The notes beneath the pieces were generated by a model. That model saw only the letters and a program-made list of their open reading frames with translations, was not told the DNA's origin and did not search any database. Both the position numbers and the translations under genes were made by a program. This document shows positions 23,659 through 51,854 of a stretch of DNA of 64,000 nt, piece by piece. The stretch's first letter is position 1, and each line of letters begins with the position of its first letter. This stretch comes from an uncultured Thermoleophilia bacterium (lineage in GTDB: Bacteria; Actinomycetota; Thermoleophilia; UBA2241), in NCBI GenBank assembly GCA_963702475.1, contig CAVPCT010000001.1, positions 200,545 to 264,544 of the forward strand. Direction: 5' to 3'.

Positions 23659-23680
23659 CCCGGCTCGAGAGGGCACAGCC

Positions 23681-35259: not shown

Positions 35260-35307
35260 GACTGTTCATTCTACTGGACGAGGTGACGCGGGAGCCGCGC
35301 GCCACGT

Positions 35308-36105
35308 TCAGGCCGGCGCGCGGCTGAGATCGTCGTCCCCCGGGTCCTCGTGGCGCACGACCCTCCCCTTCTTGGGCGCGACCCGGCGCGCGAGCGGGAT
35401 GCTGATCTCGTAGAGGACGAGGAGCGGCACGAGCATGGCGAGCATGGAGAAGGGGTCCTGGCTGGGCGTGATGATGGCGGCGGCGATGGCCATGATGACG
35501 ATCGCCCAGCGACGGTTCTTCTTGAGGAACCTGTCGTCGATGACGCCGACCTTGGCGAGCAGCACGAGGATGACCGGCATCTCGAAGACCGCCCCGAAGG
35601 CGAGGATGAAGAGGGCCACGAAGGTGAAGTAATCGGTGGCCCGGTTCTGGATGTTGAAGCTGCCGGCGTTGAAGCCCAGCAGGAACTGCAGGCCGCGCGG
35701 CAGGACCACGAGGTAGCCGAAGACGACGCCCCCGAGGAAGAGGGCGCTGGTGGCCACGACGATGGGGTAGAAGTACTTCTTCTCGCCGGAGGAGAAGGCC
35801 GGCCCCACGTAGGCCCACAGCTGCCAGATGAGGAAGGGGCTGGCCATGAGGATGGCGGCCACCACCCAGACCTTGAGGCTGATGAGGAACGGCTCCGTGG
35901 GGCTGAAGGTGGCGATCTTGTAGGCCGCGGGGTCGAGGTTCGGGACCTGGTTCAGGGGATAGAGGAGCAGGTCGAAGACGCGGTCGCTGAAGATGGAGGC
36001 GATGAGCAGCCCGACGGCGAGCGCGATGACGCACATGACGATGCGCTTGCGCAGCTCGTCGAGGTGTTCGTACAGGCTGAGGCGTGCTTCGGGGTCGACG
36101 GGCAT
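35308..36105 (-). CDS. tatC: Twin-arginine translocase subunit TatC
   Basis: L.EHLDELRKR, SPTEPF, WQLWAYVGP, FEMP, AAIITP.QD, LYEISI. Confidence 0.95.
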   Translation of the reverse strand: MPVDPEARLSLYEHLDELRKRIVMCVIALAVGLLIASIFSDRVFDLLLYPLNQVPNLDPAAYKIATFSPTEPFLISLKVWVVAAILMASPFLIWQLWAYVGPAFSSGEKKYFYPIVVATSALFLGGVVFGYLVVLPRGLQFLLGFNAGSFNIQNRATDYFTFVALFILAFGAVFEMPVILVLLAKVGVIDDRFLKKNRRWAIVIMAIAAAIITPSQDPFSMLAMLVPLLVLYEISIPLARRVAPKKGRVVRHEDPGDDDLSRAPA

Positions 36106-36112
36106 GGCGGCG

Positions 36113-36652
36113 TCAGGCGTCCTTGTCGGCGGCGGCGGTGTCGCGCTCGCCGGTCGCGGTGGCCGAGGAGCCGTTGCCCGACGGCTTCTGGCCGAGCATC
36201 TCTTCGAGCACGGCGTCGTTCATGGCGATGCCGGCGCCCTGTGGCCAGGAGTCGTCATCGTCGACGGGTGGGGCCACCTGCACGGGCTTGTCGACGGCCG
36301 CAGCGCCCGCGCTCTTCGCGGCGCCGGCGCCGATGACCGTCTTGGCCACCGACATCGGGCTCTTGAGGTCGATGGACATGCCGGCCTTGATCGCGCCGAG
36401 CGCCTCGCCGGCGCCGGTGCTCTTGACGTCGTCCTTGACGCCGTTGTAGTCGCTGGTGATGCCGTCCCGCACGCCCTTGAACTCGTCGATGACCTCGTCC
36501 AGCCCCAGCTCTGACTTGGCCGAGTTGGTGGCGCGCCGGAACTCGCGGACGGCGCGCCCCAGGCTGCGCCCGGCCTGGGGCAGGCGATTCGGCCCGAAGA
36601 TCAGCAGGGCGATGACGAGCACAAGGATGATCTCCATGGGGCCGACGCTCAC
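36113..36652 (-). CDS. Twin-arginine translocase TatA/TatB-family subunit
   Basis: GPMEIILVLVIALLIFGPNRLP..GR..REFRRA; RBS GAGGT. Confidence 0.9.
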   Translation of the reverse strand: MSVGPMEIILVLVIALLIFGPNRLPQAGRSLGRAVREFRRATNSAKSELGLDEVIDEFKGVRDGITSDYNGVKDDVKSTGAGEALGAIKAGMSIDLKSPMSVAKTVIGAGAAKSAGAAAVDKPVQVAPPVDDDDSWPQGAGIAMNDAVLEEMLGQKPSGNGSSATATGERDTAAADKDA

Positions 36653-36766
36653 GGGGGGGTACCTCGAGTCGGGAGGGTATCGAGCGCCACTAATCTTAGA
36701 GGGGCCGCTGCGCAGATTCAACGCGGCCCCCTCCGCCCGCCGCCGTTGCTGCTCCGTCCGCGCCTC

Positions 36767-36907: not shown

Positions 36908-37297
36908 TTGGCGCTTCTGCTCATGGGGATGATCGCGACATACCTAACAGACTGGGTCTACGTCTGGCTGTTCATCGTCGCCGGGGCGGCGCTGGTGGTC
37001 GCCATCCTGCTGTTCTCCAAGGTCATCAACCCCAGCCACCCCACGCCCGAGAAGCTGTCCACGTACGAATGCGGCATCCCGCCGGTCGGCAACCCGTGGG
37101 CGCCGTTCGCGGTGCGGTACTACGTGGTCGCACTGCTGTTCCTGGTCTTCGACGTGGAGGCCGTGTTCCTGTTCCCGTGGGCACTCGTGTTCCGCTCGCT
37201 CGGCACGGCGGGCTTCGTCGAGATGCTGCTGTTCATCGCCGTCCTCGGTCTCGGCCTGCTGTACGCGTGGCGAAAGGGGGCGCTGGAGTGGGCGTGA
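36908..37297 (+). CDS. nuoA: NADH-quinone oxidoreductase subunit A
   Basis: [35 protein letters not shown]. Start may be ATG 36923 or 36929. Confidence 0.95.
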
Positions 37298-37833
37298 GCG
37301 ACCTGCGCTACCCGAAGCTCGAGAACTTCAACAAGCCCAACGTCATCACCACGACCGCGGACTTCGTATTCAGCTGGGCGCGCTCGCATTCCGTGTTCCC
37401 GTTCACCTACGGTCTGGCCTGCTGCGCCATCGAGATGCTGAGCTCGGGCTTCGCCCGCTTCGACGTGGCGCGGTACGGCATGGAGGTCTTCCGGCCGACC
37501 CCGCGCCAGTGTGACCTCATGATCGTGGCCGGCACGTGCAACGAGAAGATGGCACCGGTGCTCCGCCGCCTGTACGACCAGATGGCCGAGCCCAAGTGGG
37601 TCATCAGCATGGGCGCCTGCGCCACCAGCGGCGGGCCCTTCTACGACGGCTACAACGTCGTCAACGGCGTCGACAAGATCGTGCCGGTCGACGTGTACAT
37701 CCCCGGCTGCCCGCCGCGTCCCGAGGCCCTGTTCCAGGGGCTGCTGGAGCTTCAGGGCAAGATCCAGCGCCACAAGTTCGTGGCCGAGCTGCCCGAAGTG
37801 GGCGCCGGCGGCGACGTCGCCGAGAAGGGCTGA
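37294..37833 (+). CDS. nuoB: NADH-quinone oxidoreductase subunit B
   Basis: [42 protein letters not shown]. Confidence 0.95.
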
Positions 37834-37834
37834 C

Positions 37835-38329
37835 GTGGCGCTCGAGGTCGGCAGCAACCCCATGAGCATGGACGCCATCGCGGAGACGCTGGCGGCCGAC
37901 TTCGGCGGCGATGTCGGCGACGTGCACGTGCAGGAGCCCGACACCATCGTGGCGCGCTGCGACCGTGCCGTGCTCAAGTCGGTGGCACGGCGTCTCAAGG
38001 AGCACCCGCTGATCGGCTATCAGACGCTCAACTTCATCGCCGGTGTCGACCGCATGAAGCACTTCGACAGCGTGTACCACGTGTACTCGTGGAAGACCAA
38101 CACGTGGCTGCAGCTCAGCGTCGAGGTCCCGTTCGGCACGCCCGAGGTCGACACCGTCACCGACGTGTGGCCGGCCGCCGACTGGCACGAGCGCGAGGCG
38201 TGGGACATGGTCGGCATCGTCTATGTCGGCCACCCCGACCTGCGCCGCATCCTGCTCAAGGACGACTTCGTCGGGCACCCGTTGCGCAAGGACTACATCG
38301 ACAGCGCGGAGAACCACCCGCATGTTTGA
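37835..38329 (+). CDS. nuoC: NADH-quinone oxidoreductase subunit C
   Basis: [16 protein letters not shown]...[18 protein letters not shown]. Confidence 0.95.
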
Positions 38330-39538
38330 CCAGTTCGCCACCGTCGAGCCGGACGAGGCCGTCAAGCTCGCGCTGCGACGCCTCGACGAAGCGAACGCGC
38401 GCGGCGAGGGATCGAACCTGGAGGGCATCGCCCTCGACGAGGTGGTCGTCAACATGGGCCCGCAGCACCCCTCCACGCACGGCGTGCTGCGTCTCGTGTG
38501 CACCCTCGACGGCGAGCTCATCAAGGATGTCATCCCGGTGATCGGCTACCTGCATCGCTGCAAGGAGAAGCTCGCCGAGAAGCGCACGTACTACCAGTAC
38601 ATCCCCATCGTCGACCGCACCGAGTACCTCGCCAGCATCAACTGCGAGTGGGGCTACGTGCTGGCGGTCGAGAAGCTCATGGGCATCACGCCGCCGCGGC
38701 GGGTGGAGTTCATCCGCGTCATCAGCGGCGAGCTCATGCGCATCGCCAGCCACCTCGTGGCCGTCGGCACGTTCGTGGCCGACCTCTCGCCGCTGGGCAC
38801 CGCCATGGGCTTCTACACGTTCCGCGACCGCGAGATCGTCCTCGACCTGCTCGAGTCGCTCACGGGCGCGCGCATGATGTTCAACTACTTCCGTTTCGGC
38901 GGGTGTGCGCTACGACCTGCCCGACGGCTGGATAGAGCAGTGCCGCGACTTCCTGAAGAAGATGCCGAAGCTCATTGACGAGTACGAGGCGCTGTGCAGC
39001 GACAACGCCATCTTCTTGCAGCGCACCATGGGCAAGGGCGTGATCACGCAGCAGGACGTCATGGACTACGGCATCACGGGCCCCAACGCGCGCGCCTCGG
39101 GCGTCGCCCTCGACCTGCGCCGCGCCAAGCCGTACTCGGTCTATCCGGAGCTCGACTTCGAGCTGTGCGTGGAGAGCCACGGCGACGTGTACGACCGGTA
39201 CCTCGTGCGCATCCGCGAGATGCGCGAGTGCGTCAAGATCGTGGAGCAGTGCCTCGACATGCTGCCCGAAGGGCCCCGTCCAGCTCGGCTCGCTGCGCGC
39301 CCCCTACGTCATCACGCCGCCGCCGGGCGCCGTGTACGTGGGCCAGGAGAACCCGCGCGGCGAGTACGGCACCTACATCGAGAGCGACGGCTCGCGGTAC
39401 CCGTACCGTCTCAAGTTCCGCGACCCCTGCTTCTGCAACCTGCAGCTCTTCCCCAAGCTGCTCACCGGCATCAAGATCGCCGACGCCATCGCCGTGTCCG
39501 GGAGCATCGACCTCGTGCTCGGAGGCATCGACCGATGA
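38322..39538 (+). CDS. nuoD: NADH-quinone oxidoreductase subunit D (frameshifts near 38905 and 39270-39300, probably assembly indels)
   Basis: [25 protein letters not shown]...DLR, ENPRGE, D.VLGGIDR across three frames; no NiFe CxxC motifs. Confidence 0.92.
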
Positions 39539-40657
39539 TCGACGTCATCCTCGCGATCCTCCGCGCGATCCTGTTCGTCGTGATCGCCTACTCGGTGCTC
39601 ATGGTCGCGGCGCTCGTCAACATCCTGCTGGAGCGCCGCGCCCTGGCCTTCATGCAGGACCGCCTCGGTCCCAACCGCACCGGCTGGCAGGGCACGCTGC
39701 AGAGCGTCGCCGACGCCTTCAAGATGATGGGCAAGGAGGACTTCCGCCCGGCCCTGGCCGACCCCTTCCTGTTCACCCTCGCGCCGATCATCGTCATGAT
39801 CGGCGCCGTCGGTGTGCAGCTCGCGCTGCCGTACACCAACGGCCTCACCGGCGCGAGCCTCGACGTCGGCATCATCTTCATCGTCGCCATCACCGGATTC
39901 ACGACGCTGGCCATCCTCATCGGAGGCTGGTCGTCACGCAACAAGTTCTCCCTCGTCGGCGCCCTGCGCGCCGCCGCGCAGATGGTCTCGGTACGAGATC
40001 CCCATGATCCTGGGCCTGCTCGTCGTGGCCATGGTCGTCGGCTCGCTCAATCTGAACGCGGTCGTGGCGGCGCAGGCGGACTACCAGTGGATCGCCTTCT
40101 ACGCGCCGTTCACCTTCTTCATCTTCTACGTCGCCTCCATCGCGGAGCTGAACCGCGGCCCGTTCGACCTTCCCGAAGGCGAGTCGGAGCTCGTGGCCGG
40201 CTACGTCACCGAGTACTCGGGCATGCGCTTCGGCATGTTCTACCTCAATGAGTACGGCGGCCTCACCATCATGTCCATGGTCGCCGTCACGCTGTTCTTC
40301 GGCGGGTGGCAGGGCCCCTATTCCGACGCCATCGTGTTCTGGAACGTGTCCTGGCTCGGCATCGTGTACTTCCTCATCAAGACGTACATCCTGGTGTTCG
40401 CCCTCATCTGGATACGCCTGTCGCTGCCGCGACTGCAGGTCGACCAGCTCATGGCGTTCGCCTGGAAGATCCTCATCCCGCTGGGGCTCGTCAACATCCT
40501 CTGCACGGCCGCCATCATGCTGTGGGCGCCGCAGTGGAAGCTGGCCATGGCCGCCTTCAGCTGGGTCGCCCTGATCGCCTTCGCCGGCCTGTTCGACCCC
40601 ATCCTCAAACGGCGCCTGCGCAAGCAGCGTGAGCGCCAGCCGGTGGTGAACGTCTGA
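39535..40657 (+). CDS. nuoH: NADH-quinone oxidoreductase subunit H (frameshift near 39990)
   Basis: ERR..A.MQDRLGPNR, AD..K...KE, GALRAAAQMVS/YE, AE.NR.PFDLPEGESELVAG, W.R...PR...DQ. Confidence 0.93.
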
Positions 40658-41418
40658 TGCTCGGCATGCTGAAGGCCATGCGCACCACGATCGGCCACCT
40701 TCCCAAACGCAAGATCACGGTGCAGTACCCGGAGCAGCGCGAGCAGCTCCCGGAGCGCAGCCGCGGCCTGTTCCGCGTGGTCGTCGATCCGGTGACGGGA
40801 GACCCGCGTTGCCGCTCCTGCACGCTCTGCGAGAGCAACTGCCCGGTGCAGGTCATCCGCGTGAACCACACCAGCAGGTACAACGTGCCTGTGCCCAACA
40901 CGGCGCGCATCGCGCAGGTGCGCGTGGAGGCCCAGGCCGACGTGGACATCAAGGCGCTGCAGCCGGTGCTGGACGACTACTACGAGCACGGCACCGGCCT
41001 CATCGCCCTGCTGCAGAACGCGCAGGCGGTGTACGGTTACCTGCCGCGCCTGGTCATCCAGGAGATCTCGCTGCAGACCGGCATCTCCCTCAGCCAGATC
41101 TACGGTGTGTCGAGCTTCTACAACCAGTTCCGCCTCTCGCCCGTGGGCGAGCACATCATCGACGTGTGCCACGGCACGGCCTGCCACGTGGCGGGGGCCG
41201 TGCAGATCACCGAGGCGCTGGAGGAGGAGCTCGGGATCCCCGACGGCAAGACCACCAAGGACATGAAGTTCACGCTGTCGTCCGTGGCCTGCATGGGGGC
41301 CTGTTCGCAGGCTCCCGTGATGCGCATCGGCGACAAGACCTACGGCGGCCTCACCCCTGACAAGACGCGCACCATCATCCGCGACCTCATGGCCGAACTG
41401 GGCGCGGAGAAGGGGTGA
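40657..41418 (+). CDS. Fusion: N-terminal half of NuoI + NuoE/HydC-like [2Fe-2S] subunit
   Basis: ITVQYPE...LPER.RG..CRSCTLCESNCP (a single ferredoxin motif), then LI.LLQ.AQ..YGYLP, GVSSFY.QF, CHGTAC, CMGAC..AP. Confidence 0.9.
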   Translation: MLGMLKAMRTTIGHLPKRKITVQYPEQREQLPERSRGLFRVVVDPVTGDPRCRSCTLCESNCPVQVIRVNHTSRYNVPVPNTARIAQVRVEAQADVDIKALQPVLDDYYEHGTGLIALLQNAQAVYGYLPRLVIQEISLQTGISLSQIYGVSSFYNQFRLSPVGEHIIDVCHGTACHVAGAVQITEALEEELGIPDGKTTKDMKFTLSSVACMGACSQAPVMRIGDKTYGGLTPDKTRTIIRDLMAELGAEKG

Positions 41419-43367
41419 CGAGAGACACCATGGCAGACGAGATCAGAGACGACGCGACCGAGGTCGCCGAGGCAGCACAGGCCGCGGCGGCGACCGCGGC
41501 GCCTGAGAACGAGGCACGCAACGTGCGCGTCGCGGCAGCGCCGGGCGGCGGCTACAAGGTCACCGTGTGCGCCGGCACCGCCTGCGTGTTCGCCGGCTCC
41601 ATGGCCGTGTTCGACGCGTTCGTGGAGGAGGTCCAGACGGCCGGCCTGGGCGACCGCGTGGAGGTCAGCATCATCGGCTGCCACGGCCTCTGCTCCATGA
41701 GCCCCGTCGTCGTGCTCAGCGACGACACGCTGTACGGGCACCTGCGTCCCCGGGACGTCGGCAAGGTCGTGCAGGAGCACCTCGTGGACGGCACGCCGGT
41801 GGAGCGCTTCCTCTACAAGGATGCGCAGACCGGCGAACGCATCCGCGACTGGCACGAGATCGGCTTCTACAAGCAGCAGACGCGCATCGCCCTGCGCGAC
41901 GTGGGCGTCATCGACCCGGAGAGCATCGACGAGTACGTCGCGCGCGGCGGCTACGAGGCCGCGCGTCTGTCGCTCTCCGAGAAGACGCCCGAGTGGATCA
42001 TCCAGCACGTCACCGACTCGGGCATCCGCGGCCGTGGCGGCGCCGGCTTCCCGACGGGCGTCAAGTGGAAGTTCGCCAACCAGTCGCAAAGCGACCAGAA
42101 GTACCTCATCTGCAACGCCGACGAGGGTGACCCCGGCGCGTTCATGGACTGCTCCATCCTCGAGGGCGACCCGCACGCCGTGCTCGAGGGCATGGTCATC
42201 GGCAGCTACGCCATCGGCGCGCACGAGGGGTACGTGTACGTGCGCGCCGAGTACCCGCTGGCCGTGAAGCGCCTCACCAAGGCGGTCGCCGACGCCGAGG
42301 CGCGCGGCTTCCTCGGCAAGGACATCTTCGGCACCGGCTGGGAGTTCGACCTGCACCTCAAGCTCGGCGCCGGCGCCTTCGTGTGCGGCGAAGAGACGGC
42401 GCTCATCGCCTCCATCGAGGGCAAGCGCGGCATGCCGCGCACGCGGCCGCCGTTCCCGGCCGTCTCCGGTCTCTGGGGCAAGCCGACGAACATCAACAAC
42501 GTCGAGACCTTCAGCAACATCCCCTGGATCATCATGCACGGTGCCGAGGCCTACGCTGCGCTCGGCGTAGAGACCAGCCGCGGCACCAAGGCCTTCAGCC
42601 TGGCCGGCAAGATCGTCAACGGTGGCCTCGCAGAGGTTCCCATGGGCTCCACCCTCCGCCACGTCATCTTCGACGTGGGCGGCGGCATCAAGGACGGCAA
42701 GGCGTTCAAGGCCGTACAGCTCGGCGGCCCCTCCGGCGGCTGCGTGCCGGCGAGCCTGCTCGACACGCCGGTCGACTACGAGAGCCTCGCCGCGACCGGC
42801 GCCATCGTCGGCTCCGGCGGCATGGTCGTGGTGGACGAGGACACCTGCATGGTCGACCTCGCGCGCTTCTTCCTCGACTTCACGCAGAAGGAGTCGTGCG
42901 GCAAGTGCGTGCCGTGCCGCCTCGGCACGAAGCGCATGCTCGAGACGCTCGACCGCATCATCGCCGGTTGTGGCAGGGACGGCGACATCGAGCTGCTCGA
43001 GGAGCTCAGCCGCTACGTCATCGAGGGCAGCCTGTGCGCGCTCGGCGGCACTGCGCCCAACCCGGTGCTCACCACCATCAAGTACTTCCGCGAGGAGTAC
43101 GAGGCGCACGTCTACGAGAAGCGCTGCCCGGCCGGCAAGTGCAAGGACCTCATCGAGTACTACATCGACGCTGAGGCCTGCACGGGCTGCATGCTCTGCG
43201 CCAAGAAGTGCCCCACCGAGTGCATCACCGGCGAGAAGAAGCAGCCGCACGTGATCGACGTGAGCGCCTGCATCAAGTGCGACACCTGTCGCCAGGTCTG
43301 CAAGTTCGACGCCGTCAAGGTCCACTCGGGCGTCGCCGAGATCGCGGCCGCGGGGCAGGGGGCGTAA
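41415..43367 (+). CDS. NuoF/HydB (BfuB/StnB)-type FMN/NADH subunit with N-terminal [2Fe-2S] and C-terminal 2x[4Fe-4S]
   Basis: CAGTAC..GCHGLC, RGRGGAGFPTG, NADEGDPGAFMD, GAGAFVCGEETAL, GGPSG, SCGKCVPCR, LCALG, H...RCPAGKC, CTGCMLCAKKCP, CIKCDTCRQVC. Confidence 0.93.
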   Translation: MTRDTMADEIRDDATEVAEAAQAAAATAAPENEARNVRVAAAPGGGYKVTVCAGTACVFAGSMAVFDAFVEEVQTAGLGDRVEVSIIGCHGLCSMSPVVVLSDDTLYGHLRPRDVGKVVQEHLVDGTPVERFLYKDAQTGERIRDWHEIGFYKQQTRIALRDVGVIDPESIDEYVARGGYEAARLSLSEKTPEWIIQHVTDSGIRGRGGAGFPTGVKWKFANQSQSDQKYLICNADEGDPGAFMDCSILEGDPHAVLEGMVIGSYAIGAHEGYVYVRAEYPLAVKRLTKAVADAEARGFLGKDIFGTGWEFDLHLKLGAGAFVCGEETALIASIEGKRGMPRTRPPFPAVSGLWGKPTNINNVETFSNIPWIIMHGAEAYAALGVETSRGTKAFSLAGKIVNGGLAEVPMGSTLRHVIFDVGGGIKDGKAFKAVQLGGPSGGCVPASLLDTPVDYESLAATGAIVGSGGMVVVDEDTCMVDLARFFLDFTQKESCGKCVPCRLGTKRMLETLDRIIAGCGRDGDIELLEELSRYVIEGSLCALGGTAPNPVLTTIKYFREEYEAHVYEKRCPAGKCKDLIEYYIDAEACTGCMLCAKKCPTECITGEKKQPHVIDVSACIKCDTCRQVCKFDAVKVHSGVAEIAAAGQGA

Positions 43368-43375
43368 GAGGAGTC

Positions 43376-45854
43376 ATGGCGACGACGGTCGAGAACATCC
43401 CGCAGGCCGAGGTCCGCACCGGACCAGGTGCTCGTCACCATCGACGGGCAGGAGGTGGCGTGCGAGCGCGGCGAGACCATCCTGGAGGCCGCTCGCCGCG
43501 TCGGCATCAGCATCCCGACGCTGTGCTACGAGCCGCGGCTGCCGGCCACCGCCGCCTGCCGCATGTGCATCGTCGAGGTCGAGGGCGCGCGCAAGATGGT
43601 GCCCAGCTGCTCCGCCGCCGTCGCCGACGGCATGGTGGTGCGCACCGACACCGAGAAGATCCGCGCCATGCGGCACCTGTATCTGGAGCTGCTGCTGAGC
43701 GACCACAACTCGTTCTGCACGCCGCCCTGCCGCGACGCCTGCCCCACGCACATCAAGATCCCGCAGTTCCTCGACTACATCTCGCAGCGCGACTACAAGA
43801 ACGGCGTGCGCAAGCTGCGCGAGGACCTGCCCTTCCCGGGCGTGCTCGGCCGCGTGTGCCCGCGCCCCTGTGAGGGCCCGTGCCGCCGCCAGCTCGTGGA
43901 GGAGCCCATCACCATCTGCCAGCTCCACCGCTTCATGGCCGACGAGACCAGGGACGAGGAGCAGGAGGGCGAGCTGCTGCTGCCGGTCGAGCCCAAGGCC
44001 GACACCGGCAAGCGCATCGCCGTGGTCGGCGGCGGCCCCGCCGGCATGGCCGCCGCGTTCTACGCGCGGCTCGAGGGCCACTCCGTGAAGATCTTCGAGG
44101 CGCTGCCCAAGATCGGCGGCATGCTGCGCTACGGCATCCCCAGCTACCGGATGCCGCGCGACGTCCTGGACGCCGAGACCAACATCCTCTGGCGGCTGGG
44201 CGTGGAGCTCCAGGTCGACAGCCGCCTGGGTGTGGACTACCAGATCGAGGACCTCTTCGCGCAGGGTTTCGACGCGGTGTTCCTGGCGCTCGGGGCCTTC
44301 AACTCCAACGACATGGGCGTCCCCGGCGAGGACGCCCAGGGCGTCGTCACCGCCGTGGACTTCCTCGGCGAGCTCGAGCTCACGGGCGACGTGCACGTGG
44401 GCCGCAAGGTCACCGTGATCGGCGGCGGCTTCACCGCCATGGACGCCTGCCGCACCAGCATCCGCAAGGGCGCCGCCCAGGTCACCTGCCTCTACCGCCG
44501 CTCGCGCAAGGAGATGCCCGCCCATCACACCGAGGTCGACGAGGCCGAGGAGGAGGGCGTCAAGCTCGAGCTGCTCTGCGCGCCGGTGCGCGTGGTGACC
44601 GATGCGGACCACAAGGTCACCGGCATCGAGATGCAGCGCATGGAGCTCGGCGAGCCCGACGCCTCCGGCCGCCGGCGCCCGGTCCCCGTGGAGGGCAGCG
44701 AGTTCATCATCGAGTGCGACCAGATCATCACCGCCATCGGCCAGTTCCCCAAGCTGGACGGCACCAGCGAGGAACAGGGCGTCAAGCGCACCAAGTGGCG
44801 CACCATCGAGGTGGACGACTGGACCTTCCAGACGGAGGATCCGCGCGTGTTCGCCGGAGGCGACGTCGTGCTCGGCGCGCAGACGGTCATCCAGGCCATC
44901 GCCCAGGGCAAGAAGGCCGCGTGGAGCATGGACGCGTACCTGCGCGGCCTCGACATGCACGAGGTCTCGGAGTCACTCGGCGAGCTGCGCCGCACGCCGT
45001 TCTTCGACGCGCTCTCCGTGAAGGCCGGCATGGACCCGGCCGTCGCGCGCATGGCCGAGGTGCCGCCCACGTTCATCGACATGACCACCGACATCACGCG
45101 CCCCAGCCCGCCGGCCGGGATGCCCAAGCTCGGGCCCGACGAGCGCAAGACCAACTTCAAGCAGATCGAGCTGGGCTTCCCCGAGGAGGAGGCCGTGCGC
45201 GGCGCCGAGCTGTGCCTGCAGTGCTACTGCCCGGCCAGCGGCACCTGCGACCTGCAGAAGTACTCCATCGAGTACGAGGTCTTCAAGAACCGCTTCCACG
45301 GCGGCGAGGCGCACGACTACCCGGCCGACTTCCGTCACGACTTCATCATGCGCGAACCCAACCGCTGCATCAGCTGCGGGCGCTGCGTGCGCGTGTGCCG
45401 CATGGAGGTCGGCTCGAGCTGCTACGACAACATGGGCCGCGGCTTCGACTCCATCGTCTCCACCGCCGACAACCTGCCCTTGCAGCTCGTCGGCTGCGTG
45501 AGCTGCGGCAAGTGCGCGGAGACGTGCCCCACCGGCTCCATCGAGACCAATCCGCGGCGTCTGGAGAGCTACGACCTCGACGAGAGCCGCTGCATCTTCT
45601 GCGGGGAGTGCGTGGAGGTCTGCCCCTACAACGCGCTCGAACAGACCGACTTCTTCGAGCTCGCCGACTACAGCCGCACCAAGCTGGCCACGCAGTCGCT
45701 GTACGTGCGCGAACCGCGCCCGGTCGACCCGCTGCGCGAGACGCTCAAGGACCTCGTGCCGCACGTGCTCGACGCCGAGCGCGGCGAGGGCTGGACCTGG
45801 GAGCCCATCAAGGACGACCCCATCGTGCTCGACGAGCCGGGAGGCCACCACTGA
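43376..45854 (+). CDS. StnC/SfrB-like fusion: NuoG-type [2Fe-2S] + GltD/NfnB FAD/NADPH domain + NuoG-type Fe-S domains + C-terminal half of NuoI (one extra base near 43415)
   Basis: RBS AGAGGAG-ATG 43376. IPTLC..ACRMC.VE..PSC; PCRDACP, GRVCPRPCEGPC; GGGPAG, GGMLRYGIP, GGGFTAMD, YRRS, FAGGD; CLQCYC, CDLQ; CISCGRCVRVC, CVSCGKCAETCP; YDLDESRCIFCGECVEVCP..FELADYSR. Confidence 0.9.
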
Positions 45855-46369
45855 TGCCGGGCGGCGACTTCCAGCCCTGGCTGTTCTTCATCCTGGCGGC
45901 GTGGATCCTCATCTGCGCCCTCGGCGTGGTGGTCTTCAAGAAGGTCATGTACTCGGCCGTGGCCATGGTCTTCTGCTTCCTGGGCGTCGCCTTCGCCTAC
46001 GCGCTGCTGGCCGCCTCGCTGGTCGCGATCATCCAGCTTCTGGTGTACGTGGGCGCCATCTCCGTCGTGATCATCTTCGCGATCATGCTCACCGAGGTGC
46101 AGTCCGGCGGCTTCGACCTCTTCTTCAACCGCCAGACGGCCATCGCCGCGCCGCTGGCCATCGTCGCGGCCGGCGTGGTCATCGCCGTCCTCGCCGGCTC
46201 CACGATCGGCGGCGTCGGCGAGAAGGCGCTCAACCCGGGCGTGCGCGGCGTCTCGCACATCCTGTTCGCCGCGTACGTGTTCCCGTTCGAGCTGGTCTCG
46301 CTGGTGCTGGTCGCCGCGATGATCGGCGCGATCGTGCTGGCGCGCCGTGAAGAGGAGAAGAAGTCGTGA
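45854..46369 (+). CDS. nuoJ: NADH-quinone oxidoreductase subunit J
   Basis: QLLVYVGAISV..IFAIML, Y.FPFELVSL.LVAAMIGAIVL. Confidence 0.94.
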   Translation: MPGGDFQPWLFFILAAWILICALGVVVFKKVMYSAVAMVFCFLGVAFAYALLAASLVAIIQLLVYVGAISVVIIFAIMLTEVQSGGFDLFFNRQTAIAAPLAIVAAGVVIAVLAGSTIGGVGEKALNPGVRGVSHILFAAYVFPFELVSLVLVAAMIGAIVLARREEEKKS

Positions 46370-46674
46370 ACCCTCTCTACTGGTGGCTCACGCTCTCGGT
46401 GTGTCTCTTCTGCATCGGCGCGTTCGGCGTGCTCGCGCGCCGTAACGTCATCGTGGTGGTCATGTGCCTGGAGCTCATGCTCAACGCCGTGAACATCGCC
46501 CTGGTGGCGACCAGCAACTTCCGCAGCGGCGCCCAGGGTGCCGGCCAGCTGTTCGCGTTGTTCATCATCGTGCTGGCCGCCGCCGAGGTCACCGTGGGTC
46601 TCGCCATCGTCATCGCCAACTACCGCAACCGTCGCACGGTCCAGACCGACCGGTTCGACGAGCTCAAAGGCTGA
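46366..46674 (+). CDS. nuoK: NADH-quinone oxidoreductase subunit K
   Basis: RRN.I...MCLELMLNA.N, AAAEV.VGLAI. Confidence 0.95.
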   Translation: MNPLYWWLTLSVCLFCIGAFGVLARRNVIVVVMCLELMLNAVNIALVATSNFRSGAQGAGQLFALFIIVLAAAEVTVGLAIVIANYRNRRTVQTDRFDELKG

Positions 46675-46685
46675 TTGGAGCGTCC

Positions 46686-48626
46686 GTGGAAGCAGAAGCC
46701 ACCACGCACATCATCACGGAGGGCCCGCAGTTCCTGCGGGTCGCGGTGGCCCTCATCGTGCTTCTGCCGCTCCTGGGCTTCATCGTGACGCTCGTCTTCG
46801 GCAAGCGTTGGGGATCCAAGGCGCATATCCTGCCGGTCGCCATGGTGACCGCCACGGCCGTCCTCAGCATCTACGCCTTCGAGTGGGTGTTCCGGCACTC
46901 CGAGGAGACGTTCGTATGGAACGCCTTCACCTGGATCGCGGCCGGGCGCTTCGAGATCGCCTGGGGCTTCCAGGTGGACTCGCTCACCGGCGTCATGCTG
47001 CTGGTGGTCGGTATCATCGGCATGCTCGTGCACTACTACTCCATCGGGTACATGCACGGCGACGAGGGCTACTACCGGTTCTTCGCCTACCTCAATCTCT
47101 TCATGTTCGCGATGTTCGTGCTCATCCTCGCGAACAACTACGTGCTGCTCTTCCTCGGCTGGGAGGGCGTCGGTCTCTGCTCCTACCTGCTGATCTCTTT
47201 CTGGTTCGCCAAGAAGAGCGCCAGCCAGGCGGGCAAGAAGGCGTTCCTCGTGAACCGCGTGGGCGACTTCGGGTTCACGCTCGGCATGTTCCTCATCTTC
47301 ACCGCGACCGGCACCCTGCAGTTCACGGGCGTGTTCGAGAAGGCGCCGGAGATCGCGCAGGGTACCCTCCTGTGGATCTGCCTGCTGCTGTTCACCGGCG
47401 CCGTCGGCAAGAGCGCGCAGTTCCCGCTGCACGTGTGGCTGCCGGATGCCATGGAGGGCCCCACCCCGGTCAGCGCCCTGATCCACGCCGCCACCATGGT
47501 CAACGCCGGCGTGTACATGGTCGCGCGCTCGTATCCGCTCTTTCTGGAGACGCACACGGCGATGCTGGTGGTGATGGGCATCGGCGCCTTCACGGCGATC
47601 TACGCGGCGTACATCGCCATCACGCAGAACGACATCAAGAAGGTCATCGCCTACTCCACGCTGTCGTCGCTGGGCTTCATGTTCCTGGCCCTTGGGGCCG
47701 GCGCCTGGGTGGCCGGCATCTTCTACCTGTTCGCACACGGCTTCTTCAAGGGCCTCATGTTCCTCTGTTCGGGCTCGGTGATCCACGCCATGGGCGGCGA
47801 GCAGGACATGCGCAAGATGGGCGGGCTGCGCAAGAAGATCCCCATCACCTTCTGGACCATGCTCATCGGCGCCCTGGCCATGGTCGGCATCATCCCGTTC
47901 GCCGGGTTCTGGGCGAAGGACGAGATCATCGGCGCCGCCTGGGTGCACGGGTACTACGTGGTGTGGGCGGTGGCCATGGTCACCGTGGTGCTCACCGGCA
48001 TCTACGTGTTCCGCCTCATCTTCATGACCTTCTGGGGCGAGAGCCGTGCCGACGCCGAGGTGCAGCACCACATCCACGAGTCGCCGCCGGTCATGACCGT
48101 ACCGCTCATCCTCCTCGCCATCCCGGCTGTGGGCCTGGGTCTCCTGGTCGGCCTTCCGCCGGAGGGAGGCTGGCTGCACTCCTTCCTCGAGCCCGTCTTC
48201 TTCGAGACCGAGCACGAGGTGTTCACGTGGATCGGCGAGGGCGGCGCGCTCATGGGCGTCTCGCTGCTCGCCGCCCTGGCCGGCATCTACGTCGCGTGGC
48301 GCTACTACGTGCGCGACACCGCCGCCCCGGCGCGCATCGCGGGGCGCGTGCCGATCCTGTACAAGGCCAGCTTCAACAAGATGTACATGGACGAGATCTA
48401 CGAGGTCGCGCCCATCCGCGCCACCATCGGCGCCTCCGTGTGGCTGTGGCAGGTCGTGGACGCCAGGATCATCGACGGCGCCGTGAACGGCGTTGGCAAG
48501 GTCTGGGGATGGGTCGGCACCGGTCTGCGCCCCATCCAGACCGGCCGCGTGCAGAACTACGCGATGTACGTGTTCGCCGGCATGATCGCGCTGGTCGTCG
48601 TCCTCGCCTGGATCTGGGGGGCGTGA
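46686..48626 (+). CDS. nuoL: NADH-quinone oxidoreductase subunit L
   Basis: GWEGVGLCSYLL, NRVGD, GKSAQFPLHVWLPDAMEGPTPVSALIHAATMV, HGFFK, QDMRKMGGL, QTGRVQNY. Confidence 0.96.
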   Translation: MEAEATTHIITEGPQFLRVAVALIVLLPLLGFIVTLVFGKRWGSKAHILPVAMVTATAVLSIYAFEWVFRHSEETFVWNAFTWIAAGRFEIAWGFQVDSLTGVMLLVVGIIGMLVHYYSIGYMHGDEGYYRFFAYLNLFMFAMFVLILANNYVLLFLGWEGVGLCSYLLISFWFAKKSASQAGKKAFLVNRVGDFGFTLGMFLIFTATGTLQFTGVFEKAPEIAQGTLLWICLLLFTGAVGKSAQFPLHVWLPDAMEGPTPVSALIHAATMVNAGVYMVARSYPLFLETHTAMLVVMGIGAFTAIYAAYIAITQNDIKKVIAYSTLSSLGFMFLALGAGAWVAGIFYLFAHGFFKGLMFLCSGSVIHAMGGEQDMRKMGGLRKKIPITFWTMLIGALAMVGIIPFAGFWAKDEIIGAAWVHGYYVVWAVAMVTVVLTGIYVFRLIFMTFWGESRADAEVQHHIHESPPVMTVPLILLAIPAVGLGLLVGLPPEGGWLHSFLEPVFFETEHEVFTWIGEGGALMGVSLLAALAGIYVAWRYYVRDTAAPARIAGRVPILYKASFNKMYMDEIYEVAPIRATIGASVWLWQVVDARIIDGAVNGVGKVWGWVGTGLRPIQTGRVQNYAMYVFAGMIALVVVLAWIWGA

Positions 48627-48627
48627 C

Positions 48628-50214
48628 GTGACCTGGCAAGACCAGATGGGCTTCCCCGTGCTCAGCGTCATCACCTTTCTGCCGCTCGCCGGCGTCGTGC
48701 TCATGCTGCTCCTCGGTCGCGGGCGACCGCAGGTGTACAAGGTCATCGCGCTCGTCGCCACGCTCGCCGCCTTCGCCCTGAGCATCTGGATGATGGTCGT
48801 CTTCAACACCGGTGAGCCCGGCGTGCAGTTCACCGAAGACGTCATGTGGATCGAGCAGTTCAACATCCACTACCGCTTCGGTGTGGACGGCATCGCCGCC
48901 GTCCTGCTCTTCCTGACCACGTTCCTCGGCGTCATCGTGGTCCTCGGCAGCTGGCACTACGTGAAGGACAGGGAGCTCGGCTTCTTCGTGTCGCTCCTGT
49001 TGCTGCAGGTGGGCATGGCCGGCGTGTTCTGCGCCACCGACCTCTTCCTGTTCTACGTGTTCTGGGAGGCCATGCTGGTGCCGATGTACTTCATCATCGG
49101 CATCTGGGGTGGCCCGCGGCGCATCTACGCGGCCATCAAGTTCTTCCTGTTCACGCTGATCGGCAGCCTGCTCATGCTGGTCGCCATCATCGTGGTCGTG
49201 TACGCGGCCAAAGACCAGGCCGGTCACCTCACGTGGGACATCCAGGAGCTCGGCCGCATGGTGTTCACCTACGACCTGCAGTTCTGGGCCTTCCTCGCCT
49301 TCTTCGTGGCCTTCGCCATCAAGGTGCCGATGTTCCCGGTGCACACCTGGCTCCCGGACGCGCACGTCGAGGCGCCCACGGCCGGCTCCGTGATCCTCGC
49401 CGGCGTGCTCCTGAAGATGGGTGGATACGGCATCCTGCGCTTCTGCCTGCCCTTCTTCCCGGACGCGGCCGTCACGTTCATCCCGTACATCATCGTGCTG
49501 TCGGTGATCGCCGTCGTGTACGGGGCGATGGTGTCGCTCGTGCAGAAGGACCTCAAGAAGCTGGTCGCCTACTCGAGCGTGAGCCACATGGGGTTCGTGA
49601 CCATGGGCATCTTCGCGGCCATCGCCGTACTGGGGAACGCCGCCGGCATGGAGGGCGCCATCCTGGTGATGTTCAGCCACGGCCTGCTCACGGGCGCCCT
49701 GTTCCTCATGGTCGGCTACATGTACGAGCGCACGCACACGCGACAGATCGCCGACCTCGGCCAGCTGGCCAAGCCGATGCCGGTCATGGCCGGCTTCTTC
49801 CTGTTCTTCGTGTTCGGGTCGGCGGGGCTGCCCGGGCTCAGCGGTTTCGTCGGGGAGTTCCTGAGCCTGCTCGGGCTGTTCGCGTACTCGCACTGGCTGG
49901 CGGCCGTCGCCGCCACCGGCGTCATCCTGGCGGCGGCCTACCTGCTCTGGATGTTCCAGCGCACGATGTTCAACGATCGCGGCGACGCCGAGCTGCGGCC
50001 GTCCACGCCGCTCGCCGACCTCAACCTGCGTGAGATCACCACGCTCGTCCCGCTGGTGGTGCTGGTCATCTGGGTCGGCGTCTACCCGGCCACGCTGCTC
50101 GACTACCTGCACGTGCCCGTGGACATGATCCTGCTGCGCGTCACGCCCGCCCTCAGCAGCGAGCACACGAACGTGCTGGCCCAGCTGGTCGACACCGCGA
50201 AAGGTCTCTTCTGA
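48628..50214 (+). CDS. nuoM: NADH-quinone oxidoreductase subunit M
   Basis: FYVFWEAML.PMY, AFAIKVPMFPVHTWLPDAHVEAPT, LLKMG.YG, AYSSVSHMG, GLPG.SGFVGEF. Confidence 0.96.
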   Translation: MTWQDQMGFPVLSVITFLPLAGVVLMLLLGRGRPQVYKVIALVATLAAFALSIWMMVVFNTGEPGVQFTEDVMWIEQFNIHYRFGVDGIAAVLLFLTTFLGVIVVLGSWHYVKDRELGFFVSLLLLQVGMAGVFCATDLFLFYVFWEAMLVPMYFIIGIWGGPRRIYAAIKFFLFTLIGSLLMLVAIIVVVYAAKDQAGHLTWDIQELGRMVFTYDLQFWAFLAFFVAFAIKVPMFPVHTWLPDAHVEAPTAGSVILAGVLLKMGGYGILRFCLPFFPDAAVTFIPYIIVLSVIAVVYGAMVSLVQKDLKKLVAYSSVSHMGFVTMGIFAAIAVLGNAAGMEGAILVMFSHGLLTGALFLMVGYMYERTHTRQIADLGQLAKPMPVMAGFFLFFVFGSAGLPGLSGFVGEFLSLLGLFAYSHWLAAVAATGVILAAAYLLWMFQRTMFNDRGDAELRPSTPLADLNLREITTLVPLVVLVIWVGVYPATLLDYLHVPVDMILLRVTPALSSEHTNVLAQLVDTAKGLF

Positions 50215-51854
50215 TGGGCGCCGCCAACAACGCCATCGTCGTGATCCTGCCCGGCGTCGTCCTGGCCGTGGCCGCCGCCCTGGTGCTGGTCGTCGACCTC
50301 TTCACGGAGCGCAAGGGCATGCTCGCGTGGCTCGCGGCCGGCGGTTTCGTCGCGACGGCGGCCGTGGCCGTGGGGCAGTGGATCCGCTTCACCGACGGTC
50401 GCCTGCTGTTCAACGCACGCAAGCCCGAGACCGGGTTCGCCGGCATGGTGTCCCTGGACAAGTACGCGCTGTTCTGCGTGGTGCTGTTCTGCGCCATCGG
50501 CGTGGCCACCGTCATGCTGTCGGACTCGTATCTGGCGCGTCGCCGCGCCGCACGCGGCGAGTTCTACGTGCTGCTCATGCTCATCGTCACCGGCATGATC
50601 GGCATGGTCGTCAGCACCGACATCATCGCCTTCTTCGTGTCGTTCGAGCTCATGTCGCTGCCCACGTACGTGCTCGCCGGCTACCTGTGGCGCGACGTAC
50701 GCTCGGGCGAAGCCTCCATCAAGTACTTCGTCACCGGCGCCTTCTCGTCGGCCATCCTGGCCTTCGGCCTGGCCCTGTTGTACGGCGCCACCGGGCAGAC
50801 CAGCTACGCCGGCATCGCGCAGGGACTGGCCGCCATCGACGCGCGCGGGCTGGACGCCCGCGGCTTCCTCGTGGTCGCCTTCGTGCTCGTGGTCACCGGC
50901 TTCGGCTTCAAGATCTCGGCCGTGCCGTTCCACAGCTGGGCGCCAGACGTGTACGAGGGGGCGCCCACGCCGGTCACCGCCTTCATGTCCACCGGCGTCA
51001 AGGCCGCCGCCTTCGCCGGCTTCGCCAAGCTGTTCGTGCTCGCCGCCGCCGTGCAGTGGCAGCTGTGGGTGCACACCATGACCATCCTCGCGATCCTCAC
51101 CATGGTCGTGGGGAACGTGCTCGCTCTGCCGCAGCGCAACATCAAGCGCATGCTCGCCTACTCCAGCGTCGCCCACGCGGGGTACCTCACCCTGGGCCTC
51201 ATCGCGGCCGGTACGGCGGGCGTCTGGGACGGTGTCACCGCCATCCTGTTCTACCTGGTCACGTACGCGCTGATGAACCTGGGCGCCTTCGGCGCGCTCG
51301 TCTGGATCCGTAACAAGCGCGCCTTCGACTACTCGCTGGACGGCATCGCCGGCCTGGGACGCACGATGCCGTGGCCGGCGATGATGCTGGCCGTGCTCAT
51401 GGTCTCACTCACGGGCATCCCGCCGACGGCCGGCTTCTGGGGCAAGTTCTACCTGTTCACCGCCGTCATCCGGGCCGACCTCACGTGGCTGGCGATCATC
51501 GCCGTCGTCATGAGCGCCGTGTCCGCCTACTACTACCTGCGGGTGGTGTGGTTCATGTACTTCCGTGAGGCGAACGAGCCGGCCGCCGCAGGCGACGTCT
51601 CCCCGGCGGCCGTGGGCGCTCCGAGCGCGGTCGCCGTCCCGGGCGCCGTCTTCGCCTCCGCTGCCGGCGGGGCAGCCTCGGCATCGGGCACGTCGGGCGC
51701 TCCCGTCGAGCCGCCCGCGCAGCGCCAGCCCGGTCAGGCGGGCGTGGTGTGGGCTGTGAGCCTGTGCGTCTTCGGCGTGATCGCCGTCGGCCTGTTCCCC
51801 GGGCCGCTGCTGCGGTTCGCGGAGGGCGCGCTGCGGGTGGTCCTCGGCGGGTGA
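50214..51854 (+). CDS. nuoN: NADH-quinone oxidoreductase subunit N
   Basis: E..SLP.Y, EAS.KYF, GFKISAVPFH.WAPDVYEGAP, KRMLAYSS..HAGY, SL.GIPP.AGF.GK, YYYLR. Confidence 0.96.
   Translation: MGAANNAIVVILPGVVLAVAAALVLVVDLFTERKGMLAWLAAGGFVATAAVAVGQWIRFTDGRLLFNARKPETGFAGMVSLDKYALFCVVLFCAIGVATVMLSDSYLARRRAARGEFYVLLMLIVTGMIGMVVSTDIIAFFVSFELMSLPTYVLAGYLWRDVRSGEASIKYFVTGAFSSAILAFGLALLYGATGQTSYAGIAQGLAAIDARGLDARGFLVVAFVLVVTGFGFKISAVPFHSWAPDVYEGAPTPVTAFMSTGVKAAAFAGFAKLFVLAAAVQWQLWVHTMTILAILTMVVGNVLALPQRNIKRMLAYSSVAHAGYLTLGLIAAGTAGVWDGVTAILFYLVTYALMNLGAFGALVWIRNKRAFDYSLDGIAGLGRTMPWPAMMLAVLMVSLTGIPPTAGFWGKFYLFTAVIRADLTWLAIIAVVMSAVSAYYYLRVVWFMYFREANEPAAAGDVSPAAVGAPSAVAVPGAVFASAAGGAASASGTSGAPVEPPAQRQPGQAGVVWAVSLCVFGVIAVGLFPGPLLRFAEGALRVVLGG

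Follow-up and report, generated by a model that had tools for sequence, protein, structure and literature searches.

The stretch of DNA analysed here (the window) comprises 64,000 nucleotides from an uncultured Thermoleophilia bacterium (contig CAVPCT010000001.1 of assembly GCA_963702475.1, positions 200,545 to 264,544) and carries, on its forward strand at about 36.9-51.85 kb, a nuo-type operon of 13 genes for a complex I-like enzyme (Table 1). Its order is of the 11-subunit type, with three genes for an electron-input module occupying the interval between nuoH and nuoJ (40657-45854), giving A B C D H I(N) E F G I(C) J K L M N. The module sits in the exact nuoI slot of 11-subunit operons (A B C D H I J K L M N), and no separate nuoI gene was found in the operon. 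Specifically, NuoI is split, and its halves are fused to both ends of the module, the N-terminal half to the NuoE-like first subunit and the C-terminal half to the large third subunit. The complex I core subunits A, B, C, D, H, J, K, L, M and N are all present and collinear, with nuoA, nuoM and nuoN identified by collinearity with relatives and the remaining core subunits by Pfam. An initial annotation, made from the window alone, placed the input module at 41415-45854; the second and large subunits lie within these limits, while the first (40657-41418) lies outside them. It also missed the split nuoI, two insertions in nuoD, one in nuoH and a fourth at 43418 that hides the ATG at 43376. The window has a G+C content of about 70% and belongs to the first contig (C1) of a nine-contig, 4.3-Mb genome (completeness 93.8%, contamination 6.5%); its closest named homologues come from metagenome-assembled genomes (MAGs) named Thermoleophilia or Actinomycetota.

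A search of the whole genome with the NuoI profile TIGR01971 provides the clearest view of the split. The best match is the canonical nuoI on contig C3 (model positions 1-121, 155 bits), followed by window 40678-40878 (positions 2-66, 50.1 bits) and window 45543-45692 (positions 67-116, 49.6 bits). No single protein of the operon covers the whole model at more than 113.05 bits; instead, two proteins match one half each, and since their model positions adjoin, NuoI is broken in the loop that separates the two cluster motifs. The first module protein has 253 residues, of which the first 74 match the N-terminal half with its amphipathic start, a conserved motif and the first CxxCxxCxxxCP (residues 52-63), followed by the NuoE domain (2Fe-2S_thioredx, residues 104-244, with cysteine pairs 171/176 and 212/216). 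Residues 1-95, searched against the Protein Data Bank (PDB), gave 42 matches, all but five of them complex I/NDH subunit I chains; these are mostly N-terminal halves of NuoI/TYKY (best E 8.3e-11) and include the part that precedes the first cluster motif. Among 14 sequences, 22 residues of this half (residues 1-67) are invariant, the four cysteines included. The C-terminal half consists of the third CxxCxxCxxxCP of the large subunit (residues 722-733) and the following helix, and the same kind of search with residues 705-808 returned C-terminal halves of NuoI that match residues 706-755. The fusion point lies where the solved Nfn/Stn proteins start their FdhF-like domain. An alternative reading of the domains was considered, in which motif one of the large subunit is a single-cluster Nqo3-type site, motifs two and three form a complete NuoI-like domain and the N-terminal half is an orphan; it was rejected because the Pfam Nqo3 domain spans motifs one and two (residues 639-704) and TIGR01971 takes motif three only (67-116).

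In ferredoxin-type folds each cluster takes ligands from both motifs, which is why the NuoI fold needs both halves. When the two halves were predicted as a complex together with four clusters, the median score was 0.49, against 0.00 for the best of three controls; the runs share at least 74% of contacts, with a partner pLDDT of 55 or more. In the calibration, 58 of the 80 solved complexes and 2 of the 110 mismatches reached the mark, but only 7 of the 80 solved complexes, and both mismatches, did so with scores of 0.60 or less. Custom alignments and co-modelled ligands were used, unlike in the calibration, and likeness to solved NuoI may raise the score. The prediction thereby lends weak support to a pairing of the two halves into one domain. 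Taken together, the wiring of the module to the proton pump is probably written into the genes themselves via the split NuoI.

Table 1. Genes and parts of genes of the nuo-type operon (window coordinates).
Feature	Coordinates	Strand	Evidence
nuoA	36908..37297	+	Start candidates TTG 36908, ATG 36923, ATG 36929; collinear, 74-82% identity with relatives
nuoB, 20 kDa subunit	37288..37833	+	Pfam Oxidored_q6, E 9.4e-29; N2 cluster Cys motifs in translation; 86-92% identity, five same-genus loci
nuoC	37835..38329	+	Pfam Complex1_30kDa, E 2.1e-39
nuoD, three frames in assembly	38322..39538	+	Pfam Complex1_49kDa pieces in two frames; relatives' intact open reading frame (ORF) maps to three frames
nuoD, quinone-type N-terminal motif (HPSTHG)	38466-38483	+	
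nuoH, two frames in assembly	39535..40657	+	Pfam NADHdh; private +1 insertion at about 39988
NuoI N-terminal half, in-frame fusion to NuoE-like subunit	40657..40878	+	TIGR01971 positions 2-66, 50.1 bits
NuoE/BfuC(StnA)-like thioredoxin-like [2Fe-2S] domain, same protein	40966..41418	+	Pfam 2Fe-2S_thioredx, E 6.1e-47
BfuB/StnB/HydB-type NuoF homologue	41415..43367	+	650 aa; Pfam, solved-chain alignments, B-core tree
Large subunit core, NfnA/StnC-like	43376..45542	+	Pfam, solved-chain matches, relatives' alignment
NuoI C-terminal half and conserved tail, fused to large subunit	45543..45854	+	TIGR01971 positions 67-116, 49.6 bits
nuoJ	45854..46369	+	Pfam Oxidored_q3, E 9e-27
nuoK	46366..46674	+	Pfam Oxidored_q2, E 3.2e-29
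nuoL	46686..48626	+	Pfam Proton_antipo_M, Proton_antipo_N
nuoM	48628..50214	+	Single frame; collinear, 74-77% identity with relatives
nuoN	50214..51854	+	Single frame; collinear, 57-67% identity with relatives

The second module subunit (B subunit) has the features that the initial annotation listed for it, namely an extra N-terminal [2Fe-2S] domain, an H...C-x4-C metal site, a C-terminal pair of [4Fe-4S] clusters and the motifs DEGDPGAFM, GAGAFVCGEE and GGPSG. Pfam places a thioredoxin-like [2Fe-2S] domain at residues 42-121, the Nuo51 FMN domain (Complex1_51K) at 199-370, the NuoF Fe-S region (NADH_4Fe-4S) at 481-565 and two Fer4 motifs at 582-635. The N-terminal domain has four cysteines (52/57/89/93), as in the 7t2r chain, a His-x5-Cys-x4-Cys pattern lies at 565-576 (His565, Cys571, Cys576), two CxxCxxCxxxC motifs lie at 589-599 and 619-629, and the three sequence motifs fall at about residues 236-244, 318-327 and 437-441, as counted by hand in the alignment. 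An SLBB domain is not listed by Pfam at E<=0.01, and the same stretch aligns unbroken with the solved BfuB chains. In a search against all solved structures, five BfuB chains score 785-807 bits over residues 48-637, namely 7t2r (NiFe-HydABCSL), 9bov/9bp5, 9n5u (archaeal NfnB), 8oh5 (Sporomusa StnB) and 7q4v (HydB), all of which are described as electron-bifurcating enzymes; Thermus Nqo1 scores 403 bits, in the core only (163-570). Both cluster motifs of the C-terminal domain, and the His/Cys site that precedes it, are retained in these alignments. The metal sites that go beyond the non-bifurcating NuoF/HoxF proteins, which are known here as ligand patterns, are the N-terminal thioredoxin-like site, the His/Cys3 site and the C-terminal two-cluster domain.

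By the same comparison, the claim that the module is of the Stn/Nfn-Bfu kind is borne out at the level of sequence. The assignment of the B subunit rests on bit scores and domain content, and the references in the tree of its core are the genome's own paralogues and canonical NuoF. In this tree five nuo-embedded sequences of the genus form a clade (100/100) that lies among the genome's other BfuB paralogues and far from canonical NuoF; the canonical NuoF of the same genome is 37% identical to the B subunit and is without the extra domains. The genome holds at least six further BfuB-type paralogues (contigs C3, C5 and C6), which are 53-71% identical to the B subunit of the window. The organism seems unusually rich in Bfu-type enzymes, though a cytochrome bd and a heme-copper oxidase are present.

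The large subunit (808 residues as called, 43428-45854) embeds a GltD-type FAD/NADPH domain in NuoG-type Fe-S domains, as had been proposed, and among the 25 of 26 matching Pfam families listed there is no H-cluster or molybdopterin family. Its Pfam domains are Fer2_4 (3-75), Fer4_20 (97-177), Pyr_redox_2 (196-494), an Nqo3-type ferredoxin-like domain (639-704) and further Fer4; the GltD/NfnL-like part combines two [4Fe-4S] clusters of the GltD/dihydropyrimidine-dehydrogenase type with the FAD/NADPH domain. A Cys4 N5-like site lies at residues 596-607, and three CxxCxxCxxxC motifs at 647-657, 690-700 and 722-732. In 25 large subunits, all 12 cysteines of these three motifs, the proline and the following residues are invariant, and the NADPH-type motifs GGGFTAMD (332-339) and YRRS (356-359) are invariant or nearly so. 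The best solved relatives are 9bov_A (626 bits, residues 2-728), 8oh5_C (StnC) and 9n5u_A (NfnA), over a range of 510-626 bits, and the next solved matches, over residues 98-507, are NfnL/GltD/DPD proteins. The PDB alignments with the Nfn/Stn large subunits end at residues 707-728. A paralogue in the same genome (C4:387282-389468, reverse strand, 65% identical) is collinear up to residue 726 and then starts an FdhF/molybdopterin-type domain; since it diverges where the NuoI half begins, the C-terminal half of NuoI replaces an FdhF domain. In the tree of large subunits, this paralogue groups with the nuo-linked sequences of the genus in a clade (100/100) of unresolved internal order, and not outside both families that have nuo-linked proteins. 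These nuo-linked proteins of two families form one clade (100/100), apart from a pyruvate-linked clade described below. No B or NuoE-like gene was found adjoining the C4 paralogue, whose frame ends about 120 residues into the FdhF-type part and may represent another assembly break.

The split arrangement is conserved beyond the window. The gene order with the split NuoI occurs in all nine other genomes examined, six from the same genus and three from a second family of the same class; the nuoE step has no separate match in the second-family loci. A query with the N-terminal half at E<=1e-12 found 6 of the 401 genomes of a phylum sample (own genome included), comprising two of the own family (again with the own genome), all three of the second family and one with a 177-residue frame that is a probable ordinary NuoI. 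Of 18 same-genus genomes, 15 have the fused first gene (11 whole, three in pieces and one cut by a contig end). The best 120 database clusters for the large subunit show 73-94% identity, nearly all at full coverage, with lengths of 807-880 residues; they come from several repositories, so that homologues are common in public metagenomes. Against 1.84 billion cluster representatives, the first subunit gave 9041 matches, and among the best 150 of these the fusion of N-terminal half to NuoE occurs in only a few, P0124, P0125, P0126 and P0154, and in two stretches in P0130. P0126 (251 residues, public assembly), the only member of its cluster, is a fusion of this kind with 41% identity and a low-GC-looking composition, and may mark the arrangement outside the class Thermoleophilia; a scan of metagenome contigs found no relative of it, so the low-GC lineage stands here without genomic context. 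Runs labelled freshwater sediment, sediment, biofilm and wastewater carry parts of the nuoD-nuoH stretch; as the run search gave contigs of relatives only (share of words at most 0.33), no claim on habitat or expression follows from it.

These data also bear on the question whether the module and the pump are gene neighbours only, with a soluble Nfn/Stn enzyme encoded inside the nuo operon that does not dock and a complex that borrows the canonical NuoI. A soluble three-gene relative in the lineage does carry an N-terminal half motif and the third motif with no nuo genes nearby. Against such an explanation, the N-terminal half of the window matches the NuoI-specific model positions 2-39, ahead of the cluster motif, whereas the soluble relative matches only 23-66 with 25 bits; the halves stand directly after nuoH and directly before nuoJ in 9/9 other genomes; and the operon offers no other nuoI. 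Mere neighbourhood is thereby very improbable.

The second family indicates which parts of the enzyme docking depends on. Here a single ORF of about 600 residues (L021:10383-12191, reverse strand; L111; L112) joins the N-terminal half of NuoI to a NuoE remnant that lacks the cluster and to a NuoF core; in this ORF Pfam finds Complex1_51K, SLBB and NADH_4Fe-4S and neither a [2Fe-2S] thioredoxin-like domain nor a C-terminal Fer4, and the third cysteine of its N3-type motif is an aspartate in the one sequence inspected. The large subunit keeps the GltD-type FAD/NADPH domain, the three motifs and the C-terminal half of NuoI. The short NuoF part joins canonical NuoF in the B-core tree with a support of 85/68, flagged as a meeting of long branches, which is why the placement allows no conclusion on whether this family lost the Bfu domains or never had them. 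As the family combines the split NuoI and the NADPH/FAD subunit with no bifurcating features, docking to complex I is independent of these features, and the conserved route of both families would therefore run from NADPH/FAD through the large-subunit clusters and the split NuoI to quinone. The model of bifurcation described in PMC11829005 involves a flavobicluster of B1, FMN and C1 and the B3/B4 domain. Since bifurcation in this model requires both the cluster of the NuoE type and the ferredoxin-reducing domain at the C-terminus, the second-family enzyme should not bifurcate. Electron bifurcation by the window enzyme is a step that we infer from its sequence; of the initial proposal of a bifurcating enzyme wired to a proton pump, the wiring is supported by the split NuoI, and the bifurcation is putative; the sister family keeps the split NuoI without the bifurcating domains.

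In a simpler enzyme, a non-bifurcating NAD(P)H:quinone oxidoreductase, NADPH (at FAD) and NADH (at FMN) would both be funnelled into NuoI, N2 and quinone, the BfuB extras would be inherited baggage and ferredoxin would be no substrate. By standard potentials, a quinone outlet makes the oxidation of NADPH strongly downhill without coupling, and the second family has the split NuoI and the NADPH/FAD subunit in the absence of the NuoE [2Fe-2S], N-terminal thioredoxin-like and C-terminal 2x[4Fe-4S] domains. Deletion of the StnA [2Fe-2S] cluster, furthermore, is described to abolish bifurcation and to leave the NADPH:viologen activity in place (PMC10482914). In the genus of the window, however, every cofactor site of the bifurcating core is kept, and the B subunit is 75-86% identical over its full length in two same-genus genomes and aligns end to end with solved bifurcating enzymes. 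Such full conservation of the Bfu core makes unused domains unlikely, and the simpler enzyme is thus a rather unlikely explanation, if still one to be reckoned with.

The available data are compatible with a model in which the operon encodes a second complex I-type enzyme of 13 genes, with an Nfn/Stn-type BfuABC module docked by the split NuoI, that passes electrons from NADPH to menaquinone with proton pumping; judged from sequence, this is fairly likely. The two halves would re-form the 2x[4Fe-4S] fold of NuoI on NuoB/NuoD, tethering the module and linking the Fe-S chain of the large subunit to cluster N2 and the quinone site. NADPH would be oxidised at the FAD of the large subunit, menaquinone reduced and protons pumped. 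In StnABC the C1/C2 branch toward the FdhF-like domain is described as a non-functional remnant (PMC10482914); here the corresponding dead-end branch would lead through the NuoI clusters and N2 and serve as the quinone outlet. Less certainly, the fully conserved BfuB/BfuC core of the genus may add ports for NAD(H) and ferredoxin. NADH together with reduced ferredoxin could then feed the same chain by confurcation, or, with the quinone pool in its reduced state, NADPH could be bifurcated to NAD+ and ferredoxin. The components on the membrane side fit this model: NuoD keeps its quinone-site HPSTHG motif, as had been reported, with no hydrogenase-type cysteine motifs in its translation, and a check of the genome for menaquinone genes, which the initial annotation had suggested, finds MqnA of the futalosine pathway, together with the cytochrome bd and the heme-copper oxidase, and no match to a MenA model.

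Several points weigh against this model. The predicted NADPH specificity rests on homology, the complex prediction is a weak pass only, and the fused gene is absent from 3 of the 18 same-genus genomes (completeness 83-87%). The function common to both families would need no bifurcation, the second family being without the NuoE cluster and the ferredoxin-binding domain. The linker from the N-terminal half of NuoI to the NuoE domain, moreover, has only about 25-30 residues. In canonical complex I NuoE is far from NuoI, and with so short a linker the module would therefore have to sit differently from NuoEFG. In favour of the model, the N-terminal domain of the NuoE-like subunit in NfnABC from Caldicellulosiruptor saccharolyticus (Csac) is described to lie in a cleft to which the large subunit contributes its FdhF-like domain and the B subunit its Rossmann fold (PMC11829005), so both attachment points of the NuoI halves are neighbours in a solved relative.

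The direction of electron flow is a further consideration, as the enzyme might operate mainly in reverse, with the proton-motive force driving electrons from menaquinol to NADP+ (and to ferredoxin via the Bfu core) for biosynthesis. Complex I and enzymes of the Nfn/Stn kind are reversible, and a canonical 14-subunit-type complex I is already available for the oxidation of NADH; reverse activity is also described for Stn (PMC10482914). No feature of the sequence sets the direction, however, and many other Bfu-type enzymes could make reduced ferredoxin, which leaves mainly reverse operation improbable. The canonical operon (C3:203114-217762, reverse strand) spans nuoB to nuoN, its nuoE, F, G and I being of the ordinary kind, and its subunits B, D, H, L, M and N are 36-50% identical to the window copies. 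A gene for heme-copper oxidase subunit I (C3:223689-225029, forward strand) lies about 6 kb from it.

The reading frames of the operon require a comment of their own. The initial annotation took NuoLMN and the membrane complex to be intact; NuoLMN do read as single, collinear frames, and for the membrane complex this overlooked frameshifts in nuoD and nuoH that are likely assembly errors. Four private single-base insertions were found, at about 38901 and about 39268 (nuoD), at about 39988 (nuoH) and at 43418 (large subunit), called against five relatives for nuoD and nuoH and against three for 43418. The last shifts a conserved ATG start (43376) out of frame, and the gene as publicly called begins at GTG 43428. 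From four public runs (X1, X2, X3 and X15), contigs were aligned to 38300-40700, which covers three of the four sites; X1 has no coverage of the insertion sites. At 38900-38904 the base is omitted in X15 at a depth of 35.2 out of 35.2-40.4 and in X3 at 98.5 out of 98.5-100.5; in X2 the omission is 0 of 9.13 at 38900, 6.74 of 6.74 at 38903 and 0 of 6.74 at 38904. At 39268 the base is omitted in X3 (31.4 of 31.4), and at 39990 in X15 (12.9 of 12.9) and X3 (10.7 of 10.7). Near-identical gapped contigs include X15 record 9 (1 of 265 letters differing, one gap), X3 record 27 (7 of 504, two gaps) and X3 record 31 (4 of 402, one gap). The contrary observations are an omission of 0 of 3.3 in X15 and 0 of 6 in X2 at 39268 and of 0 of 4.78 in X2 at 39990, and a near-identical X2 record (19) with one gap whose place is not listed.

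These frameshifts could be real, with nuoD, nuoH and the large subunit belonging to a gene cluster that decays in this strain. The four +1 insertions are private to the record, three of them lie within 1.1 kb, none is in a long homopolymer, and at two sites some runs show no omission. Set against decay, short-read contigs 98.6-99.6% identical to the window are without the inserted bases at all three aligned sites, and other genes of the assembly are likewise in two frames (the BfuB paralogue at C3:612.8-614.7 kb and the C5 NuoE-like N-terminus). The same-genus few-contig assemblies G006, G015 and G016, furthermore, also show the fused gene in pieces, and no stops or other frame breaks were noted in the operon beyond the four insertions. 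Because near-identical short-read contigs are without the extra bases and other genes of the assembly read in two frames, the four frameshifts are probably assembly errors, and the decay of the cluster has only a slim chance of being right. There are further signs of single-base errors in this assembly: the BfuB paralogue reads in two frames over C3:612292-614678, the N-terminus of the C5 NuoE-like gene (C5:516788-517513) is out of frame, and at about 23530-23670 of the window one ORF of the relative G003 maps to two frames.

Among known systems, the module comes closest to StnABC of Sporomusa ovata and NfnABC of C. saccharolyticus and Thermococcus sibiricus, with which it shares the three kinds of subunit and the domain order. 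Full-length alignments of the B subunit to 8oh5_B, 9bov_B and 9n5u_B reach 798-801 bits, each cofactor site of the B and NuoE-like subunits has its pattern in the sequence, and the large subunit shares with Nfn-Bfu/StnABC the GltD/NfnL-like FAD-NADPH domain within NuoG-type Fe-S domains. Unlike these systems, the window module has no FdhF-like C-terminal domain, which in StnABC/NfnABC is catalytically dead and serves tetramer formation, and carries the C-terminal half of NuoI instead; its NuoE-like subunit carries the N-terminal half. StnABC/NfnABC are, moreover, soluble enzymes from three-gene clusters, whereas the window genes stand inside a nuo operon and their product is predicted to be membrane-bound with a quinone outlet. 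Compared with canonical complex I, the operon has the eleven core subunits with quinone-type NuoD and NuoB, but no NuoEFG of the canonical kind, and its NuoI is in two pieces. The 11-subunit relatives that have no N-module (cyanobacterial NDH-1 and Fpo-like enzymes) share the order A B C D H I J K L M N, and their donor docks at the NuoI side. That donor is a transiently binding soluble ferredoxin, whereas the window module would be covalently attached via the split NuoI.

The Bfu family was defined by Schut et al. 2022 (PMC9304861), where Nfn-Bfu denotes a Bfu enzyme with an NADP(H)-binding large subunit. Of its defining features, the window proteins have the FMN-binding domain, NuoF 4Fe-4S region, ferredoxin-type 4Fe-4S domain and extra metal sites of BfuB and the NuoE-type domain of BfuC. 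The same source predicts Nuo-Bfu to be a proton-pumping menaquinone reductase fed by NADH and ferredoxin, with 14 separate subunits A-N and BfuB of clades 38/39, in Deferribacteres/Proteobacteria and Planctomycetes/Nitrospirae, in Geobacter and others. Compared by description, Nuo-Bfu likewise has a BfuABC module in the middle of a nuo cluster that replaces NuoEFG; the window operon differs by its 13 genes, the split and fused NuoI, the Nfn-type NADPH/FAD large subunit and its place in Thermoleophilia. As such, the predicted enzyme combines traits of Nuo-Bfu and Nfn-Bfu and adds the split NuoI. No description of a split NuoI or of an NADPH-type module inside a nuo operon was found in the open-access main texts searched, and the clade tables of Schut et al. 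2022 may list these proteins.

The arrangement has several implications. That the Bfu family includes a proton-pumping enzyme in the membrane has until now been a prediction from gene neighbourhood only; with the connection written into the polypeptides, a prediction of the Nuo-Bfu type becomes directly testable, and the tethers should help to keep the module on the complex through purification and imaging. Should NADPH prove to be its substrate, the enzyme would be a complex I with direct input from NADPH, and we know of no established complex I of this sort. A two-cluster ferredoxin fold split by the insertion of three genes, and kept in two families, furthermore represents a clear example of the recruitment of an input module to an 11-subunit ancestor of complex I. 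In a bolder reading, which we hold to be possible while giving it less than an even chance, the enzyme is a four-port redox hub that joins NADPH, NAD(H), ferredoxin and menaquinone with proton translocation in one confurcating/bifurcating complex I, with the dead-end branch of Stn/Nfn as the quinone outlet, and the splitting of ferredoxin domains (NuoI here, PorD-like in a pyruvate-linked relative) is the general way in which the lineage plugs Bfu modules onto enzymes.

This relative is a pyruvate-oxidoreductase-linked Bfu cluster, found in the same genome (C5:516.8-522.6 kb) and at loci L032-L105. Like the module of the window, it comprises a BfuB, a NuoE-like subunit that carries a half-ferredoxin motif at its N-terminus, and a large subunit in which the GltD domain is accompanied by a third cysteine motif; in contrast to the window, its large subunit ends in a TPP-binding (PorB-like) domain, and its N-terminal half is without the NuoI-specific leading part. 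Across 55 such loci of at least 15 kb, from MAGs named Thermoleophilia, Gaiellales or Actinomycetota, the core large subunit and the B subunit are present in 55/55 each, the TPP part in 52, the third motif in 53 and the N-terminal half in 52, and in none of the 55 was nuoB, nuoH, nuoL or nuoM found within 10 kb. By its sequence, the cluster is a second use of the split-ferredoxin design. The copy in the own genome (C5:516000-522611, part of which is held by locus L003) adjoins a PorA-like ORF that was identified by eye. In the window itself, genes for a class A penicillin-binding protein, tatC and a tatA/B-type protein lie directly upstream of the nuo-type operon (33097-36721, reverse strand).

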